From contig CAWJKZ010000025.1 in the NCBI GenBank assembly GCA_963843575.1, positions 160,001 to 224,000 of the forward strand: a stretch of DNA of 64,000 bases, given 5' to 3'. The position numbers and the translations under genes are program-made. A model generated the notes under the pieces. That model did no database searches. It was not told the DNA's origin and saw only the letters and a list, made by a program, of their open reading frames with translations. The stretch comes from an uncultured Acidobacteriota bacterium (GTDB lineage Bacteria; Acidobacteriota; UBA6911). This document shows positions 39,264 through 48,239 of the stretch, one piece after another (positions within the stretch are counted from its first letter, which is position 1; every line of letters begins with the position of its first letter).

Positions 39264-40799
39264 ATGCTCTTCCGGGTTCAATCCGCTGCGGTCTTCGGCA
39301 TCAAAGCCTACCTGGTCGCGGTCGAGGTCGACCTGGCCGCGGGCAAGAAGATGAACTTCATGACCGTTGGCCTGCCCGACACGGCGGTGCGGGAGAGCAG
39401 TGAGCGGGTGAGGGCGGCGCTGCGCAACTGCGGCTATCAGCTGCCGCCGCAGCGTATTACCATCAACCTGGCTCCTGCCGACGTGCGCAAGGAAGGATCG
39501 GCCTTCGACCTACCGATGGCAATCGGCATTCTCGGGGCAGCGGGCTCGGTACGTACGCAGAACCTGTCCGGCTATCTCTTCCTGGGAGAGCTGTCGCTCG
39601 ACGGCTCGATCCGGCCGGTGAAGGGAACCCTTTCGATGGCCGTCATGGCCCGGGAGAAGGGGCTCGGGCGGCTCGTGCTTCCCGAGGCCAACGCCGGCGA
39701 GGGCGCCGTGGTTGACGGCGTCCACGCCTTTCCCGTACGCACTCTCCCCCAGGTGGTCGAGCTGCTCAACGGACGCGCCCCCTGGATTCCGCTGGTCGTG
39801 GATCGGCGGCAACTGCTGGAGCAGAACGGGGTCTACGAGGTGGACTTCCGGGACGTGCGGGGACAGTACCAGGCCAAGCGCGCGCTCGAGGTCGCAACGG
39901 CCGGCGGGCACAACATCATCCTCATCGGGCCGCCCGGCTCCGGCAAAACGATGCTCGCGCGGCGGCTGCCGACCATTTTGCCCGCCATGACCTTCGAGGA
40001 GGCGATCGAGACGACCAAGATCCACTCGGTCGCGGGCCTGCTTTCGGAAAAGAACGGTCTGGTCGCGATTCGCCCGTTTCGCGCGCCGCACCACACGATC
40101 TCCGACGGCGGGCTGATCGGCGGCGGCAGCACGCCGAGGCCGGGCGAGGTCAGCCTGGCGCACAACGGGGTGCTGTTTCTCGACGAATTCCCCGAGTTCC
40201 AGCGACACGTGCTCGACGTCTTGCGCCAGCCGCTCGAGGACGGCGACGTGACGATCAGCCGGGCGTCGATGTCGCTGACCTTTCCGGCGCGCTTCATGCT
40301 GGCCGCCGCAATGAACCCCTGCCAGTGCGGCTGGTCGGGCGATCCCGAAACACGAATGCACCTGCACGGTGCCGCTCATCCAGCGCTACCTCGCCCGCAT
40401 CTCCGGGCCGCTGCTCGACCGCATCGACCTGCACATCCGGGTGCCGGCCGTGAAATACAAGGAGCTCGCGCAGGACGAGACAGCCGAAGCCTCGGCGGCG
40501 ATCCGCGAGCGCATCGTCGCGGCCGGCAGATCCAGTTCCGCCGCCTGGAGGCCTTCGGTTTGTTCTGCAACGCACAGATGACGCCGCGCACGCTGCGCCG
40601 CTTCTGCAAGCTCGACTCGGAGTCCGAGAAGCAGATGGAAAACGCCATCACGCGGCTCGGGCTGTCGGCGCGCGCCTACGACCGGATCCTCCGCGTCTCG
40701 CGGACGATCGCCGACCTGGCCGGCGAGGAGAAGATCCAGGCGCGGCACGTCTCCGAAGCCATCCAGTACCGCACCCTCGACCGCACCTACTGGCAGTGA
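39264..40799 (+). CDS. comM: YifB/ComM Mg-chelatase-like AAA+ ATPase (compensating frameshifts at about 40355-40520)
   Basis: VGLPDTAVRES, NLAPADVRKEGSAFDLP, GPPGSGKTMLARRL, RPGEVSLAHNGVLFLDE; RISGPLLDRIDL in the alternate frame; LSARAYDRILRVSRTIADL. Confidence 0.93.
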   Translation: MLFRVQSAAVFGIKAYLVAVEVDLAAGKKMNFMTVGLPDTAVRESSERVRAALRNCGYQLPPQRITINLAPADVRKEGSAFDLPMAIGILGAAGSVRTQNLSGYLFLGELSLDGSIRPVKGTLSMAVMAREKGLGRLVLPEANAGEGAVVDGVHAFPVRTLPQVVELLNGRAPWIPLVVDRRQLLEQNGVYEVDFRDVRGQYQAKRALEVATAGGHNIILIGPPGSGKTMLARRLPTILPAMTFEEAIETTKIHSVAGLLSEKNGLVAIRPFRAPHHTISDGGLIGGGSTPRPGEVSLAHNGVLFLDEFPEFQRHVLDVLRQPLEDGDVTISRASMSLTFPARFMLAAAMNPCQCGWSGDPETRMHLHGAAHPALPRPHLRAAARPHRPAHPGAGREIQGARAGRDSRSLGGDPRAHRRGRQIQFRRLEAFGLFCNAQMTPRTLRRFCKLDSESEKQMENAITRLGLSARAYDRILRVSRTIADLAGEEKIQARHVSEAIQYRTLDRTYWQ

Positions 40800-41246: not shown

Positions 41247-41705
41247 ATGGAGACGCAGTGCGTGACAGTTTTCGATCGCATCCAGCGATTGCGCCCGGGA
41301 GACATCCCATCCCTTCTGCGAATCACGACCATTCTGTTGGCGCTGCCCTTCCTCTTGCGACGACTGCCGTTGAACAGGCTTTTGCACCTTCTTGATGCTA
41401 AACCGCTCCAAGCAGCCGATTCTCACTTATCTGTCGAACGGCACATCTCCCTGGCTCGCGGGCTACTCCACTTAAACATCGGACCGTTTCGACCCAACTG
41501 CCTGACGCAATCGCTTATATTGTTCCACCTCCTGCGTCGGTTGGGTCTTCCTGTACGCATTCATTTCGGGTTGGCAAGGCGGCAAACCAGACTCCAGGGA
41601 CACTGCTGGTTGGAATCCGATGGAAAACTCATCGCCGAAAAGGCGGATCCGGCGCGCTTCTACCGGAGTGTATACACGTTTCCGGATCGTTCTCTGGTGC
41701 AATAG
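41247..41705 (+). CDS. Lasso-peptide-type B2 leader peptidase (transglutaminase-like)
   Basis: PNCLTQSLILFHLLRRLG...IHFG...LQGHCWLE, the Cys/His catalytic motifs of lasso B2 proteases. Confidence 0.9.
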   Translation: METQCVTVFDRIQRLRPGDIPSLLRITTILLALPFLLRRLPLNRLLHLLDAKPLQAADSHLSVERHISLARGLLHLNIGPFRPNCLTQSLILFHLLRRLGLPVRIHFGLARRQTRLQGHCWLESDGKLIAEKADPARFYRSVYTFPDRSLVQ

Positions 41706-41734
41706 ATCCGGTGCAATAGAAAGGAACACCCGTG

Positions 41735-41908
41735 ATGGCCGAATCAAACACCCCACATGACAGCGACCTTGCCCGCAATCTCGCAAGAGAGCGACAGGAT
41801 GCAGCTCCACGGAAATCGGACAGGAAGTCGTTTGTGAAACCTGAATTGACGAAACACGAATCTCTCCCTGAGGTGACCACGGCATTCTTCGCGACCTTCC
41901 AACCTTGA
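41735..41908 (+). CDS. RiPP precursor peptide, 57 aa (lasso-type leader; predicted core AFFATFQP)
   Basis: Below the ORF-track cutoff. RBS AAAGGA; MAESNTPHDSDLARNLARERQDAAPRKSDRKSFVKPELTKHESLPEVTTAFFATFQP*; FxxPxL-x9-T matches the lasso leader YxxPxLxxxGxxxxxT. Confidence 0.85.
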   Translation: MAESNTPHDSDLARNLARERQDAAPRKSDRKSFVKPELTKHESLPEVTTAFFATFQP

Positions 41909-42957
41909 GAGACTGCAAGGTGCCCGGAACGTCGATTCCGAACCGGCGAGTTGTGTCCCGTATTCCGCTCCCTTTGCCTTCGCACTCCGCGGGAAAGGAC
42001 TACCTGCTTCACGGCCTCTTGGTGCGTGTCGATTGCGACAACAAGCGCCTTGAACTGCAGGTCCATTCTACCCTCGAGCAGTTTGGGCTGGTGCCGTCCG
42101 ACCAATATGGAATGGTGCCTGACGTGTCCCTGACGCTCCGCACTGCGGCTGGCCGATTATGCGTTCCTGGCAAGAGTCGCCTTTTGGCCGAGCAGCATGG
42201 CATACGAATTTCGAGTGCCCGGAACGATGTCTATCTCGAGGATGGCGACAATGTCGCTCGCCTGAGTCCGCATTCGGCAAGCGGTATCGCCACGATTCGT
42301 GCGGGAGCGCCGAGAACGCGGGCGCTGCGGGGAGACCTGCTTCTCCACTGCCTCCTTCTTTTGCTGAGGTATCGGGATCTCTTTACGGTGCACGCTGCAT
42401 GTGTGGCCCGAGACGGAGCGGGATGCATGTTGGTGGCCGAGGGAGGTTGCGGCAAATCCACCCTCATGTTCGCCCTTGTCCGGCACGGCTGGAACTACCT
42501 CTCCGATGACGTCAACCTCCTTTGTCCGCGGGGTTGCGACGTGCAGGCTCTGCCGCTCAGGAGAGATCTGTCGCTGCACATCACGGCTGCTCGCAGATAC
42601 CCCGAAATAAACGATTGTCGCGACTCCATTTCCATGACTCCGGATTCGAAGCTTCGTCTGAATCTGCTAACGCTCTATCCCAACCAACTCGCTGCCGCTT
42701 GTCTTCCGCAACTACTGCTTTTCCCTCGGATCCTACGCGGGCCGACCAGTCGACTTGAACCGATGCCCAAGCCTGAGGCCTTGTGGCATCTGATCAAGCA
42801 GAGCGCTTTGCTTTTTGTGGAACCCACTATGGCGCCCAGACATGTCGATCTTCTCAGGCGGCTGGTAGGCCAATGCAAAAACTATTCCCTCGCAGCGGGG
42901 ACGGATCTCGAGAAAGACCCAGGCGCGATCTCCGGTTTGGTGGACGGCATCACCTAG
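41905..42957 (+). CDS. HPr kinase-related P-loop kinase
   Basis: TVHAACV, Walker A AEGGCGKST, WNYLSDD, LLLFPRI; start codon uncertain. Confidence 0.85.
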   Translation: MRDCKVPGTSIPNRRVVSRIPLPLPSHSAGKDYLLHGLLVRVDCDNKRLELQVHSTLEQFGLVPSDQYGMVPDVSLTLRTAAGRLCVPGKSRLLAEQHGIRISSARNDVYLEDGDNVARLSPHSASGIATIRAGAPRTRALRGDLLLHCLLLLLRYRDLFTVHAACVARDGAGCMLVAEGGCGKSTLMFALVRHGWNYLSDDVNLLCPRGCDVQALPLRRDLSLHITAARRYPEINDCRDSISMTPDSKLRLNLLTLYPNQLAAACLPQLLLFPRILRGPTSRLEPMPKPEALWHLIKQSALLFVEPTMAPRHVDLLRRLVGQCKNYSLAAGTDLEKDPGAISGLVDGIT

Positions 42958-42971
42958 AGAATTCTCGAAGC

Positions 42972-43982
42972 ATGACAGCAAAGCCGGGTATGAGATTAAA
43001 CTTCGAGCTAACCAATCTCTGCAATCTGCGGTGCATACATTGTCTTAGAGAAAGAGGGGCCCCTGGCGAGTACCTCTCTGTCTGCCTGGTCGAAAAGGTC
43101 CTTGCCGAGATGCAGTCGTACAGCAGTTTCGAGTTGGTCAGCTTTGGAGGAGGCGAGCCGACCCTGCATCCCGGGCTCGATACGATCATAGGACTCGTGA
43201 CCCGCCATGGGTATCGGTTCGCTTTTGTGACCAACGGCTGGCAATTTCAAGAGACATTCCGGATTCTGAGACCCTATCTCGGATTCCTGGAGGGAATCTC
43301 GTTCAGCCTCGACGGCGCCAACGAGGCCAGTCACGATGCCCTGCGGCTTCGGCCCGGCTCCTTTCGCCAGGTGATTCAGGCCATTGTTTTGTCTCGTTCA
43401 CAAAAAATCGCCTCTCACATAAACATGGTCGTCACCAAAGCAAATCGCACAGAGCTGGAAGACATGGCCTCACTGGCAAGCCATCTGGGTTGTTGCATCC
43501 TGGATTTCGCGCACTGCCAGCCGACGCCGGATGCCGTCGCCGCCGGGTTGGTCCTGAACTCCGAAGAGCGTCAGCAGGTGGAAGCAGATATTGCCGAGTT
43601 GCAGCGGATCTACAGGATGAAAATCCGCCTTGCGGGAGATCATCATAGCCCTTTGCGGTTCTATCAATGCCCGCAGTTGCGCATGGAGGAACTCAATGTC
43701 GACTACCGCGGCCGGCTGACCTTGTGCTGCATGCTCTCCAACTACCGGGGAGGCACTCCCGATACGGACGTGATCGCCGATCTGAACGAGGTGTCCCTCG
43801 CAAAAGCACACCTGCGCCTCATTTCCACGATTGCGGAGCTCCAACGCGAAAAGGTCACACTTCTGAACCGAAAGCCGGCAACGAAAGAGGATTCCTTCAT
43901 TTGCACGCACTGCCTCATTCACTTCAAAAAGGTGCCCGATATCCGGCGGATCCTGGAGCCGTCCCGAGGTGTGGGCACTTAG
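42972..43982 (+). CDS. Radical SAM peptide maturase with SPASM/twitch domain
   Basis: ELTNLCNLRCIHC, SFGGGEPTLHP, VTNG, SLDG..HDALR; C-terminal C-x13-G-x4-CC and CTHC. Confidence 0.9.
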   Translation: MTAKPGMRLNFELTNLCNLRCIHCLRERGAPGEYLSVCLVEKVLAEMQSYSSFELVSFGGGEPTLHPGLDTIIGLVTRHGYRFAFVTNGWQFQETFRILRPYLGFLEGISFSLDGANEASHDALRLRPGSFRQVIQAIVLSRSQKIASHINMVVTKANRTELEDMASLASHLGCCILDFAHCQPTPDAVAAGLVLNSEERQQVEADIAELQRIYRMKIRLAGDHHSPLRFYQCPQLRMEELNVDYRGRLTLCCMLSNYRGGTPDTDVIADLNEVSLAKAHLRLISTIAELQREKVTLLNRKPATKEDSFICTHCLIHFKKVPDIRRILEPSRGVGT

Positions 43983-43996
43983 TCTCTGGAGGTCTT

Positions 43997-44284
43997 ATGT
44001 CGGCTTCCGAGCAGCAATTCCGCTGCCATCCAAGCGTCGTCTTCACCCGTCTGAGCGAAAACGAGGCGGTCCTGCTGCATCTGGACACGAAAAGGTACTA
44101 CTCCCTTAATGAAACCGGGGCGCGCCTTTGGGAACTCCTCCAGGATGGAAGGGTCCCGGATACTCTCTGCGAAAAAATCCTCGAGGAATATGACATCGAC
44201 GACAACAAGGCCCGCGGCTTCATCCGGGAGTTTCTGGATGAGTTGCGCAGGGAAGGCCTTGTGGAATCCGGTGGTGGCCACTGA
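43997..44284 (+). CDS. PqqD-family RiPP recognition element (lasso B1-like)
   Basis: RBS GGAGG; EAVLLHLDTKRYYSLNETGARLWELL...LEEYDI...FLDELRREGLV. Confidence 0.92.
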   Translation: MSASEQQFRCHPSVVFTRLSENEAVLLHLDTKRYYSLNETGARLWELLQDGRVPDTLCEKILEEYDIDDNKARGFIREFLDELRREGLVESGGGH

Positions 44285-44290
44285 GGAATT

Positions 44291-45670
44291 ATGGTTCCTG
44301 CCAGGAGCAGTCTGCCCGTGAATAAGAAAACGGCCGATTCGAATTCGGCTTCGGGAGTTCCGTCTCCAGATGCATCGCTGCCTCGACTGAAAACCGGGCG
44401 ACTCTGCCCCGCCGATCAAATGCATGTGATTGAGATGCCTGCCGATTTCTTACGCAGCCCGGTGCTCCCGGAAACAAAACTGCTGCTAGAATGTGCCTCC
44501 CTCGAAATAGCGGACGAAAGGGCACGGCGAATACGGAGCATCGTCGGCGGGAACCTGGATTGGACGGCTCTTATCGAGCGAGCACTCCGGCATGGCGTCA
44601 TGCCGCTCCTGTATCGCAACCTTCTGCTCGTTTGTCCGGATGCTGTTCCCGCGTCACACCTCGAACATCTTCGGGATGTGTTTTCACGTCAATTCGCGGC
44701 GCTGCCTGCTTTTCGCGGGGCGGCTGGTCGAGATCCTGCGACTGTTGGAGGCCAACAATATAACTGCAATACCGTACAAGGGCCCCGTGCTGGCCGCATC
44801 AGTGTATGACAACCTTGTACTTCGGCAGGCCGGCGACCTGGATATCCTGGTGCATTCTCGCGATGTGTCCAAAGCCAAAGCGTTGATCTCGTCCCTGGGA
44901 TTTTTCGGATCGGGACCGAATGACCTCGGACGTTGAGGCGATTCGTGCCCGATCGGACTATGAGTTCCGGCTGGTCAGCAAAGCGGACGACCTTTACGTC
45001 GGTCTTCACTGGAACGTCTGGCCGGCGTCTCAGCATTTCCCACTGGAGAGCCTGCACTTGTGGGAACGTGTTGTGCCTTTTCGGTTCGCGGGAGCGTTGG
45101 TCCCATGCCTCAGACGAGAGGACCTGCTCATTCTACTCTGTGCGCACGGAGTGAAGGACGTCTGGCCGAGGCTCATCTCCGTCTGCGATATTGCGGAGTT
45201 GATCCGGACATCCGAGCACCTGGACTGGAATTGCACTCTCCACCAAGCGGAGAGGCTTGGGCTCAGGCGGGTTCTTCTGCTTGGGCTGCATCTCGCTCAC
45301 GCGCTCCTGCAAACGTCTCTGCCCCAATCGATCTCTAGCGGGATCGAAAAGGACGATGCGCTTGCATCACTGGTCGAAGAAGGCACATCAGCGCCTGCTT
45401 TCAGGACCGCGAGCCCCGGAGCCCCTCGAAGGTTCCCTCTACTATCTGAGGTCACGTGAGCGGTTGCGAGACAGACTCAGGGGCTGTGCCGGTATAGTAC
45501 ACCAGTACAATTGGATGACTCCCCGGATTGTGGATCGGACGGTCCTGCCGCTGCCCGCCTCACTTGAGTTCATCTACACCCTGCTCTGGCCCATGCGCCT
45601 GGCAGGGAGATATATCCTCCGTCCAGTGAGACGTGCAATCAGGACTCTCAGGCAAGGCATCGGGTGGTAG
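44291..45670 (+). CDS. Nucleotidyltransferase family protein (NTP_transf_5-like); frameshifts near 44685, 44925 and 45385
   Basis: LDWTALIERALRHGVMPLLY / IPYKGPVLAASVYDNLVLRQAGDLDILV / VGLHW...LLILLCAHG...CDIAELI / LYYLRSRER across four frames. Confidence 0.85.
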
Positions 45671-45751: not shown

Positions 45752-48239
45752 TCAGTTACCTCCTGCACTTACGGTCCCCCAGATATCCACAGAGAAGCTG
45801 AACCGGTTCCGGTTAGCCAGGCCGATCCTGAATCGGACGGTGGCTGATTCATTCGGCAGAAGCGTGTCGTCAGTTCCGGCATCAATCGCCTGCTTGCTAC
45901 CCACCGCTCCGTTGCCTTCGTGAGCGCTGAGAAGTTTGTTCCCGTTGGTCAGCGTCGCCACAACCGCCTTGATCGGTTCCCAGATATTCTGCTGGCTCTT
46001 GTTGGTTAAACGGGCAGTGATCGTATAGACACCAGCAGGACCGCCGTAAACAGGAGTGGTACTCAAGGAGGAGCTTTGGACCACGAAGTTCACCTTGTCA
46101 TTGATGAGCTGCAGTTGCGGCAAACCGGACAGATTCGTGTCTAGTTTGACAATAAAGCCCTCATTCTGTTCCCTGGTGCTATCTGCCGACCCTGCCCCTG
46201 CCAATCTGGGAATGTCAGGGCCTGTAAAACCTGCCAAATAGAGGTCCCCAACACTATCAAGAGCCACAGCACTGACGTATATACCTTGTCCCAGCAGCAA
46301 TGCTGATGCGAGGTTAACGCTAAGATCTGAATTCAGCTTCGCCACACAGACTCCGTCATTTGTGGTACCACCCACGTAAACACCCGTGCTTCCAATGGCA
46401 AGAGACTCATCAGTACAGCCACGAGTCCCCCCCGAAAAACTGGCAGCCACAATTGAACTCAGATCTGAACTCAACTTTGCCACAAAGCCTCCGAAGTCTG
46501 CAGCAACAGTGCTCTCGGCGGAGCCGGGACCTACGCCTGGAAAATCCGATGATCCCGTGCGACCGGATACATAGACAATTCCTGCGTCATCTAGGGCGAG
46601 GGCATATATCTGATCGATGTTGCCACTTCCACCAAGAAACGTAGCTGCCAGAATGGAACTCAGAACCGAATTCAGCTTCACCACAAACCCTTCGGAACCA
46701 GATGCGGTGCTATCGGCGGACCCTGAACTTATACCTGGAAAGTCGCCTGAGACTGTGGTACCAGCCGCATAGACTGATCCACTGCCATCTAAGGCGAGGG
46801 CTGTAACGGTCTCGAAATACCGTCCTCCTAGGAAAGTTGCCGCCACAATGGAACTCAAATCCGAATTCAGCTTGGCCACGAAGCTCTCCCCTCCACTATC
46901 ATAAGGTTCGGGGACTCAAAAGTGCGATCGGCCGAGCCTAGACCTATTCCAGGAAAATCGGCTGATCCTGTAGAACCGCCCACATAGACATTCCCTGTAC
47001 TGTCAAGGGCGAGGGCCTCAGGCGCATCTACACCACTTCCTCCAAGGAAGGTAGCTGCCAGGATTGAGCTCAGCTCTGAGTTCAGCTTTGCAACAAAACC
47101 TTCTGATCTATACGTTTTGGGTAGCCGGTATGTTTAGCAAGTATGCGATCGGCTGAACTTGGACCAATGCCTGGAAAATCCGCTGAGGAAGTAGTACCGA
47201 CTGCGTAGACATTCCCAGCACCATCAAGCGCGAGGGCATTCAATGATTCATAATTGCTTCCCCCAATGTAGGTAGCAGCCAAAATGGTGCTTAGATCTGA
47301 ATTCAGCTTCGCGACAAAACCATCTCCTCCAGCAAGTGTGAGATCTGCCGACTCCGAATCTATACCGGGAAAATTGGGGGAGCCTGTGTCACCTGCCACA
47401 TAGACATTCCCCATGTTGTCCAAGACAAGGGCATGAAGTTCATCATTATTAATTCCCCCCAGGTAGGTCGCCGCTAGTATCGGGTCGATGACAAGCTCCC
47501 GGGTCTGGTCGTACTCCCCGACCTTAAAGCTGTATCCATTGCCTCGTAGCTGATAGGCAACTTCGACTGGCTCTCTCTTTCCTCCCTGCTCCTGAGACGC
47601 TAACGGCTTTGAGAACCTCACCGTCCCTTGGTCTGTCTCTACCTCCAGTTCTCCGCTCTCGTTGACCTTAATTCCCTTCCCCCCGCTGAGCTTCATCTGG
47701 ATCGTCTCTGGCTCGGCCCCCGGCTTTACATAAAACAGCTTCTCCACATTGTTCCCATAGGCTTTGAATTTGACGTCGATCCCTTGATAGACTTCTCCCA
47801 GACTCACCCGGTCGTAGCTGGGCAGGTTGCTCTGCCATTTCGATCGGTCATTCCCCCTGAAATAGCTCACCCGGGTCGCTGTCCGGCTTTCGCCTTTAAC
47901 CTCCCTCACCTTCGCGCCGATGAGCTCCTCTCTCAGCACCACCCCCTTCGCTGGTTTCTCTCCCTCCAGCTTTGGAAGGGAGTACACCAGTTCGCCTTTC
48001 TTTGTAACCGAGACTGTTCCGGCAAACGTCCGGGCGGTGAACTTCACCTCTTTACTGCTCTGGCCCCGATTGGGGATAAAGGGAATCTGGACCTTGGCCA
48101 GCTTCTGTTTCGCCTCAGCTCCCACGGCATTCGAAGAGCTATTCGAGCTAGCCTCTGCCAGTTGCGCTATCCCCAGCGCCAGCGACAACCAGACCATGAT
48201 CTGCACCGAAAAAGTGGTGTGACAATTCCAGGTTTTCAT
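45752..48239 (-). CDS. SBBP (beta-propeller) repeat secreted protein (frameshifts near 47110 and 46915)
   Basis: N-terminal FIPNRGQ...VSYFRGNDRSKW...VYQGIDV...LVIDP, followed by repeats ILAATFLGG...ALALDxxGNVYVAGxTxSxDFPG...GFVAKLNSDLS. Confidence 0.85.

Follow-up and report, generated by a model that had tools for sequence, protein, structure and literature searches.

A cyclase-free peptide cassette of an Acidobacteriota bacterium combines lasso-type leader handling with a radical SAM enzyme

What does a peptide cassette make when it carries the leader-handling parts of a lasso peptide cluster together with a radical S-adenosylmethionine (SAM) enzyme, but no lasso cyclase? This question is raised by six genes at positions 41247-45670 of a 64,000-nucleotide (nt) stretch of DNA from an uncultured, soil-type Acidobacteriota bacterium (assembly GCA_963843575.1, contig CAWJKZ010000025.1, positions 160,001-224,000), which we refer to as the window. 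The genes encode a B2 leader peptidase, a precursor peptide, an HprK-like kinase, the radical SAM enzyme, a PqqD-type RiPP recognition element (RRE; RiPPs are peptides that are made by the ribosome and modified after translation) and a nucleotidyltransferase. The cassette is conserved without a cyclase, its precursors share leader and core motifs, and the radical SAM enzyme is linked to the RRE by adjacency and by fusion. By analogy with characterised systems, we consider it likely that the cassette makes a non-lasso peptide, which would be modified by the radical SAM enzyme under the guidance of the RRE and then phosphorylated or further tailored. The product is probably a tiny modified peptide that has not yet been characterised.

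The open reading frame (ORF) list, together with Pfam and NCBIfam scans, resolves 41247-45670 into six close-packed ORFs on the + strand, in agreement with an initial annotation of the window that had described six tightly packed genes of the same orientation:

41247..41705, + strand: B2 leader peptidase of lasso type, 152 amino acids (aa), a cysteine protease with a transglutaminase core; PF13471, NF033537
41732..41908, + strand: precursor peptide, 58 aa from a GTG start or 57 aa from the ATG at 41735; no family match, a small ORF before the kinase in relatives
41831..41881, + strand: leader recognition stretch F34-T50 of the precursor; alignment A2, lasso register
41882..41905, + strand: predicted 8-residue core A-F-F-A-T-F-Q-P at the precursor C-terminus, placed by the T(-2) register
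41905..42957, + strand: HprK-like kinase, 350 aa; TIGR04352 and PF07475, both below cut-off, and alignment A4
42972..43982, + strand: radical SAM enzyme of 336 aa, its C-terminal domain Cys-rich (twitch/partial-SPASM-like); PF04055, alignment A1
43997..44284, + strand: PqqD-type RRE (lasso B1-like), 95 aa; PF05402
44291..45670, + strand: NTP_transf_5 nucleotidyltransferase, in four frame pieces; PF14907

Successive genes are separated by 26, -4, 14, 14 and 6 nt, and an AAGGA-like ribosome-binding site lies ~9 nt upstream of the precursor start. Since the arrangement recurs in related loci, it is unlikely to be a product of chance. Promoter and terminator scans of the locus performed no better than on shuffled sequence.

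The radical SAM enzyme matches PF04055 with 70.2 bits and contains the radical SAM motif CxxxCxxC, the cysteines of which (C17, C21 and C24) show almost no variation in alignment A1. Six further cysteines (C182, C233, C252, C253, C311 and C314) are invariant in the same alignment, as is the element H-C-Q-P-T, and C-x13-G-x4-C-C and a terminal CxxC are retained. An AlphaFold2 model of the enzyme (pLDDT 92.7) finds SkfB (6efn) as its best Foldseek match (E 6e-15, TMq 0.66), which is also the best PDB sequence match (E 1e-9), followed by BlsE, viperins, DesII, SuiB, CteB, PqqE (6c8v) and anSME, all at 14-19% identity. The solved structures nearest to the model include the peptide maturases SkfB, SuiB, CteB and PqqE. 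No Pfam SPASM model matches at E≤0.01, and the label 'SPASM/twitch' given to the enzyme in the initial annotation depends on the C-x13-G-x4-C and CxxC elements, the six additional invariant cysteines and the fold matches to SkfB, anSME, CteB and PqqE; a Cys-rich C-terminal domain that binds auxiliary Fe-S cluster(s) may be present. Of the NCBIfam models, 58 match the enzyme and none comes near its cut-off.

Genes around the relatives of the enzyme were counted in 32 distinct loci (tblastn, E≤1e-4, within 8 kb), with L004, which lies within L108, and L116, a duplicate of L012, not taken as loci of their own. The radical SAM gene adjoins PqqD in 28 of these 32 loci. Fusions of both occur in P0086 and P0092 (PF04055 plus PF05402) as well as in L013, where a single ORF spans the two. 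The coupling of this enzyme to the lasso-type recognition element, which had been proposed from the window, is thus borne out. The PqqD protein of the window matches PF05402 with 70.5 bits, and the lasso PqqD chaperone models NF033530 (53.4 bits, cut-off 70) and NF033536 (49.7 bits, cut-off 80) stay below threshold. The B2 peptidase is well above the cut-offs of both PF13471 (57.9 bits, cut-off 26) and the lasso_biosyn_B2 model NF033537 (63.7 bits, cut-off 33), and is the sole PF13471 match in its genome; the pair of RRE (B1) and B2 that is typical of lasso clusters is therefore present.

A complex between PqqD and the precursor, predicted with alignments that we built ourselves, reaches a score of 0.54, as compared with 0.01 for the best of three controls, with at least 87% of contacts agreeing between runs and a partner pLDDT of at least 53. 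Among reference cases, 58 of 80 solved complexes attain the mark applied to such predictions, as do 2 of 110 mismatched pairs, and the range up to 0.60 holds only 7 of the 80 solved complexes along with both mismatched pairs that passed. Structures of lasso RRE-leader complexes have been solved, and the pass may therefore mirror likeness only; the prediction lends weak backing to the binding of the precursor by PqqD. In the Gram-negative lasso system Bsf, BsfB1 speeds both phosphorylation and cleavage (available text of PMC10368454), and by analogy the single RRE of the cassette may serve several of its enzymes.

The precursor has no family match in Pfam and NCBIfam scans. A precursor hidden Markov model recovered six of nine precursors, and inspection of the ORFs that separate B2 from the kinase gene yielded the remaining three. 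The alignment of these nine sequences (A2, window numbering) gives the consensus KKxFVxPELxxHxxLxxVTxAFxGxFxP, in which P37, F52 and F56 are invariant (9/9); seven Pyrinomonadaceae-type precursors (L008, L009, L013, L112, L113, L115 and L117) were left out of A2, as their cores differ and start with FFQ or AFF. The leader is characterised by the motif [F/Y]xxPx[L/I], which in the window takes the register F(-17)-x-x-P(-14)-x-L(-12) followed by T(-2)-T(-1). An exact 17-residue stretch from the aromatic residue or Ile to the last leader residue, with P(-14), Leu/Ile(-12) and Thr(-2), is seen in six of the nine precursors. The register of lasso leaders, given as YxxPxL at -17 to -12 with Thr(-2) in the available text of PMC10368454 and PMC13381572, is reproduced by the window precursor, including the recognition residue at -2.

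All nine cores contain two Phe residues spaced F-x3-F and are 6-11 residues long (7-11 in the six with the Thr(-2) register). Where the cleavage site can be placed, in six precursors, the cores are AFFATFQP in the window, GFAGSFPP, SFIGTFSP, AFVGSFNP, FFGGFTP and QSNGFFSAFVP, and those of the L111/L114/L118 group read AFSASFLAP, AFTASFIAP and AFIGTF. A Ser or Thr directly precedes the second Phe in seven of the nine cores and corresponds to Thr55 in the window. Sactipeptide maturases require Cys in the core, and the core regions of all nine precursors are free of Cys, which sets them apart from sactipeptides and ranthipeptides alike; Asp and Glu are likewise missing from the six placeable cores. 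A lasso ring needs a core Asp or Glu that closes with the N-terminus, as in Gly1-Asp8 (available text of PMC10368454). The composition of the cores thus excludes both a lasso ring and a thioether link, and with only 6-11 residues they are in any case unable to form a lasso. The short non-lasso product envisaged in the initial annotation is in keeping with these cores and with the missing cyclase.

Contigs from two RNA (metatranscriptome) libraries of one study cover 41701-42292 (0 differences) and 41716-42003 (1 difference), a segment that takes in the precursor gene along with the beginning of that for the kinase, and independently confirm the sequence. They also give a hint of transcription of this segment, a weak one since DNA can occur in such libraries. 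One RNA-library contig has T>C at 41828, which would turn Ser33 of the leader into Pro.

The absence of a lasso cyclase extends well beyond the window. The genome (6.68 Mb, 27 contigs, 88% complete) contains one match to the cyclase family PF00733, at 27 bits on contig C10, outside the window. This candidate was rejected as a lasso cyclase because it is QueC, at 233.6 bits. The statement that neither cluster nor window holds a cyclase is hence upheld, and the genome-wide scan suggested along with it finds nothing except QueC. In the complete genome of Candidatus Brocadia pituitae (G061), where a related cassette lies at 2.413 Mb, PF00733 gives only three matches of at most 26 bits, the nearest of them ~150 kb from the cassette. 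In all five related genomes that were scanned, one of them complete, PF00733 has no match on the contig that bears the radical SAM gene, and an asparagine synthase (AsnB) query finds nothing in any of the 32 loci. Homologous clusters that combine a cyclase with Asp- or Glu-bearing cores, which would have spoken for a lasso product, were thus not encountered among these loci and the six placeable cores, and the cassette lacks both hallmarks of a lasso cluster.

For ATP-binding cassette (ABC) transporters, 0 of the 80 PF00005 matches of the genome fall within the window (C25:160001-224000), a search that did not include non-ABC exporters. The further claim of the initial annotation that the window holds no transporter therefore holds for the ABC type, to which the search was confined. 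A crude motif test for ORFs with a Walker A motif and an ABC signature likewise found none in 13 of 13 loci with flanks of up to 10 kb.

The kinase scores 61.9 bits against TIGR04352 (HprK_rel_A, cut-off 200) and 19.3 bits against PF07475, also below cut-off, and has no PDB sequence match at E≤0.01. All ten rows of alignment A4 retain H163, the P-loop residues G183-K184 (GxSGxGKST) and D201-D202, and we take this His, P-loop and Asp-Asp pair to be the catalytic core of HPr kinase/phosphorylase.

The nucleotidyltransferase is broken near 44680, 44905 and 45385, such that PF14907 positions 3-44, 48-118 and 125-248 sit in three different frames. When intact relatives are used as tblastn queries, four pieces are found in order, the fourth of which holds the conserved C-terminus; each piece still matches the family and contains no further stops. 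The intact relatives are single ORFs of ~390 aa, as exemplified by L085:1838-3010, which covers PF14907 positions 2-249 of 249 with 192 bits. The breaks coincide with a T4 and a T5 run and with a GG pair. In the same assembly the essential gene rpoB (G000:C24:252860-257103) matches its model in seven pieces, and the ComM-like gene upstream of the cassette leaves its frame near 40347 and regains it near 40527. Because of the position of the breaks in short runs, the return of the ComM frame and the seven pieces of rpoB, the breaks in the nucleotidyltransferase most likely are assembly indel errors rather than gene decay. The pattern suggests indel errors of a long-read assembly, and with frame breaks this widespread any 'pseudogene' in this genome is to be distrusted. 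Read-level coverage from three sequencing runs is limited to 41701-42344.

Across the 32 loci, PqqD is found in 28; those without it are L006 and L110, plus L014 and L109, the contigs of which end within 75 nt. The kinase is present in 22 loci, and seven of the ten without it have at most 68 nt of upstream DNA. In a separate search L013 gives a kinase match at 4.6e-5, and L109 and L110 are truly without a kinase. NTP_transf_5 is seen in 17 loci, B2 in nine (plus L111 at 9e-5) and a sulfotransferase-like gene in three. The full order B2, precursor, kinase, radical SAM, PqqD and nucleotidyltransferase occurs in the window, L108 and L118, and also in L111 if its weak B2 match (E 9e-5) is counted. 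Conserved neighbours had been expected for the whole set: kinase, radical SAM enzyme and PqqD do recur, with short precursors and no cyclase, whereas B2 and the nucleotidyltransferase are restricted to 9/32 and 17/32 loci. These two genes are not universal, since L113-L117 lack B2 despite 8 kb on each side.

The radical SAM enzyme has 1449 relatives at E≤1e-10 in a large protein set, the best 120 of which are 43-77% identical, and 130 representatives at E≤1e-30 in a 50%-identity library; the family has no curated model. Among genomes it is sporadic, being present in 2 of 61 kin genomes and in 11 of 401 sampled Acidobacteriota genomes, where matches other than the window are 33-39% identical. 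Metagenomes, and sources that bear the names Nitrospira, Longimicrobium and Calditrichia, supply the closest proteins (55-61% identity). To these three, which are known by source name, Acidobacteriota, an anammox Planctomycete and Myxococcota are to be added as carriers. A profile scan of genome contigs with A1 also picked up a generic radical SAM pattern, and only ~10 of the 80 loci listed are true relatives. A motif scan of metagenome contigs gave 11 contigs, and as most of these are short, the close relatives at 55-61% identity come with little context.

On the basis of the protein families, a pathway may be proposed in which PqqD binds the lasso-type leader of the 58-aa precursor, so that the 8-residue core AFFATFQP at the C-terminus is offered to the radical SAM enzyme. 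The latter, which the initial annotation puts forward as the main maturase in place of the cyclase, would abstract a hydrogen and join side chains around the two invariant Phe residues, a side-chain crosslink (-2 Da) being the most likely outcome and epimerisation the alternative. The HprK-like kinase would then phosphorylate a core Ser/Thr, here Thr55, and the NTP_transf_5 protein could extend that phosphate with a further group by analogy with PsmN, which is required for hexose addition to phospho-Ser in pseudomycoidin (available text of PMC9266682). Finally, B2 would remove the leader after Thr(-2)-x(-1).

Several observations weigh against this pathway. In three of the nine precursors (L111, L114 and L118, from one acidobacterial family) Thr(-2) is missing and the spacer is longer, and the Ser/Thr before the second Phe is not found in all cores (7/9). 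The homologous kinases act on Ser3 or on a C-terminal Ser, which are absent from these cores (available text of PMC9266682, PMC10368454 and PMC13381572, from which the roles of PsmK/PsmN, BsfK and LppK are also taken), and LppN was inactive in the only test described in the available text of PMC13381572. The nucleotidyltransferase frame is broken in the assembly. To this may be added the lack of a Pfam SPASM match, the limited occurrence of B2 and the nucleotidyltransferase, including the B2-free loci L113-L117, among loci of which many lie on short contigs, and the radical SAM relatives L109 and L110, which stand without any partner gene.

A more far-reaching form of the pathway is tentative, and we regard it as less probable than the general proposal: the cassette would define a new RiPP class, in which a twitch-type radical SAM enzyme, directed by the lasso-type leader and the RRE, crosslinks the invariant F-x3-F pair of the 6-11-residue core and the product, phosphorylated and nucleotidylated or glycosylated, acts as an intracellular cofactor or signal, the intracellular role being suggested by the fact that no exporter is kept beside the genes. 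If the radical SAM enzyme indeed makes a new Phe-based linkage, this would represent a new class-defining modification. Modular evolution of peptide pathways is clearly illustrated by the cassette, in which B1 and B2, the lasso parts for leader handling, are reused around another core enzyme, and with six genes and an 8-residue core the cassette, spread over poorly studied phyla, offers natural-product chemists a compact system.

The closest printed system is the family of linear polyphosphorylated peptides (LPPs; Popov et al., Nat Commun 2026; PMC13381572), in which, according to the available text, phosphorylation is the primary modification. LPP clusters are there described as related to paeninodin-type clusters but devoid of a cyclase, with a discrete RRE, an HprK kinase and a YxxP-type leader, and an NTP transferase is also common to both, as likened by label (LppN and NTP_transf_5). 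The combination of RRE, HprK-like kinase and NTP transferase without a cyclase is thus shared by the cassette. Differences are equally evident: LPP clusters, by the same text, have a signal-peptidase-I-like protease, an MsbA-like pump, precursors of 35-200 aa with variable C-termini and hosts among the Bacillota, whereas the cassette has a B2 protease, a radical SAM enzyme, a short conserved core and hosts from Gram-negative phyla. The cassette does not combine a signal-peptidase-I-like peptidase with an MsbA-like transporter; its six genes are all otherwise assigned, so that none is left as a signal-peptidase-like gene, although no search with signal-peptidase families was made. Neither 'radical SAM' nor 'rSAM' is mentioned in the main text of PMC13381572, supplements not included. 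The novelty suggested in the initial annotation is narrowed by this comparison: cyclase-free relatives with kinase and nucleotidyltransferase are already in print, yet the LPPs as described in the available text lack a radical SAM enzyme and B2.

It is conceivable, though unlikely, that the cassette follows the LPP logic, such that (poly)phosphorylation of a linear peptide by the kinase is the defining step, the nucleotidyltransferase extends it and the radical SAM enzyme serves only for tailoring, for example as a mass-neutral epimerase. The documented LPP clusters provide the precedent for such a cyclase-free route, each of the nine cores has at least one Ser or Thr, and radical SAM peptide epimerases exist (available text of PMC9266682). 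Against this stand the invariant residues of the core, which are the two Phe rather than a Ser or Thr, the radical SAM-PqqD pair, which at 28/32 loci is the most constant part of the cassette as compared with 17/32 for the nucleotidyltransferase, and the fusion of the radical SAM enzyme to the RRE in some members.

An alternative that we judge somewhat less probable again follows the logic of pyrroloquinoline quinone (PQQ) and mycofactocin, in that the radical SAM enzyme would crosslink the short core to give, after proteolysis, a peptide-derived small molecule, an intracellular cofactor or signal that is possibly nucleotide-linked. PqqE/PqqD and MftC/MftB likewise consist of a radical SAM enzyme and a PqqD-type partner acting on the C-terminal core of a short peptide, and the cores of the cassette, 6-11 residues at the extreme C-terminus, would suit such a fate. 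The models for the mycofactocin maturase, at 71.7 bits, and for PqqE, at 43.3 bits, are among the best sub-threshold matches of the window enzyme, which nevertheless lie far below the cut-offs of 265 and 381, and PqqE (6c8v) is among its fold matches. PqqE/PqqD and MftC/MftB differ in having other precursors and no kinase, nucleotidyltransferase or B2. The lack of PF00005 matches in the window and of ABC-signature ORFs in the 13 loci (a crude motif test) would fit a product that stays in the cell, but these exporter scans covered the ABC type only, and the neighbourhood of the cassette shows no conserved redox enzyme or other gene that would use the product. To our knowledge, the cases of lasso-type B2 and of tailoring by kinase and nucleotidyltransferase described to date concern secreted peptides, which also argues against this alternative.

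That loss of the cyclase and decay have left the cassette as a productless remnant of a kinase-type lasso cluster is very improbable: the three frame breaks in the nucleotidyltransferase and the G+C content of the cluster (0.57-0.58), which as for acquired DNA is below that of its flanks (0.64-0.67), could be so read, but the cyclase-free cassette is kept across several phyla with intact genes, its cores are conserved and differ from lasso cores, frame breaks are general in the assembly (rpoB in seven pieces, ComM with two breaks), and each nucleotidyltransferase piece matches its family with no further stops.

The preferred reading, an RRE-guided, radical SAM-modified non-lasso peptide, also sets the cassette apart from the remaining known systems. 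The kinase-type lasso clusters of paeninodin, pseudomycoidin and Bradymonas (Bsf) share with it, as far as the available text of PMC9266682 and PMC10368454 goes, a discrete PqqD-type B1, a B2, an HprK-like kinase and an NTP_transf-type protein, as well as leaders in which YxxPxL spans -17 to -12 and position -2 holds a recognition residue. In contrast to these clusters, the cassette has neither a lasso cyclase nor an ABC exporter but a radical SAM enzyme, and its core of 6-11 residues has neither a Ser3 nor a C-terminal Ser and, where placeable, no Asp or Glu. SkfB, SuiB and CteB are the nearest solved folds (TMq 0.66, 0.61 and 0.57), but their identity is confined to 14-19% and sactipeptide enzymes depend on the core Cys that all nine cores lack. 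The context-defined NCBIfam systems SynChlorMet (ScmC/D/E/F), HPr-rel-A and GeoRSP similarly bring together HprK-like, PqqD-like and radical SAM/SPASM proteins; all scores for their models are below the curated cut-offs, namely ScmF 67.5 of 400, ScmC 23.8 of 125, HprK_rel_A 61.9 of 200, PqqD_rel_X 27.2 of 35 and GeoRSP_rSAM 62 of 400 bits. A full-text literature search, with subscription journals and supplementary files outside its scope, found no description of the cassette, and the available text of PMC10288494, PMC12710340 and bioRxiv 10.1101/467670 holds nothing on it.

The sporadic occurrence of the radical SAM family among kin genomes, the closest proteins lying elsewhere and the lower G+C content together suggest that the cassette was acquired laterally. 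Its neighbours are unrelated, being a ComM/Mg-chelatase-like gene upstream (39264-40799) and SBBP/DUF7948 repeat proteins on the opposite strand downstream. Between 42000 and 52000 the window has a G+C content of 0.53-0.59, as compared with 0.63-0.68 in the rest, and the cassette and the downstream repeat-protein genes may together be acquired DNA. At 45752-48239 (- strand) two adjoining ORFs contain SBBP beta-propeller repeats and a DUF7948 domain, and may be one gene cut by an assembly frame break.

Related loci show a number of variants. In the Pyrinomonadaceae-type variant (L008, L009 and L112; also L113, L115 and L117), the cores of which start with FFQ, extra genes encode a sulfotransferase-like protein after the radical SAM enzyme, a FecR_C-like protein and LTD or P-domain proteins. 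The nucleotidyltransferase after PqqD is replaced by a B12-binding radical SAM protein in L091 (3144-4496) and by a GNAT acetyltransferase in L093 (2202-2795). The B2 of L108 (6389-6776, genome G008) matches as two overlapping pieces in different frames, reflecting either a frame break or an alignment effect. L006, L109 and L110 represent radical SAM relatives in other contexts: the enzymes of L109 and L110 (L110:5154-6164) are 36-37% identical to that of the window, with no kinase, PqqD or B2 nearby, and in L110 the H-C-Q-P-T element is altered and the gene adjoins sigma-factor-like and anti-sigma-like genes, as judged by eye.

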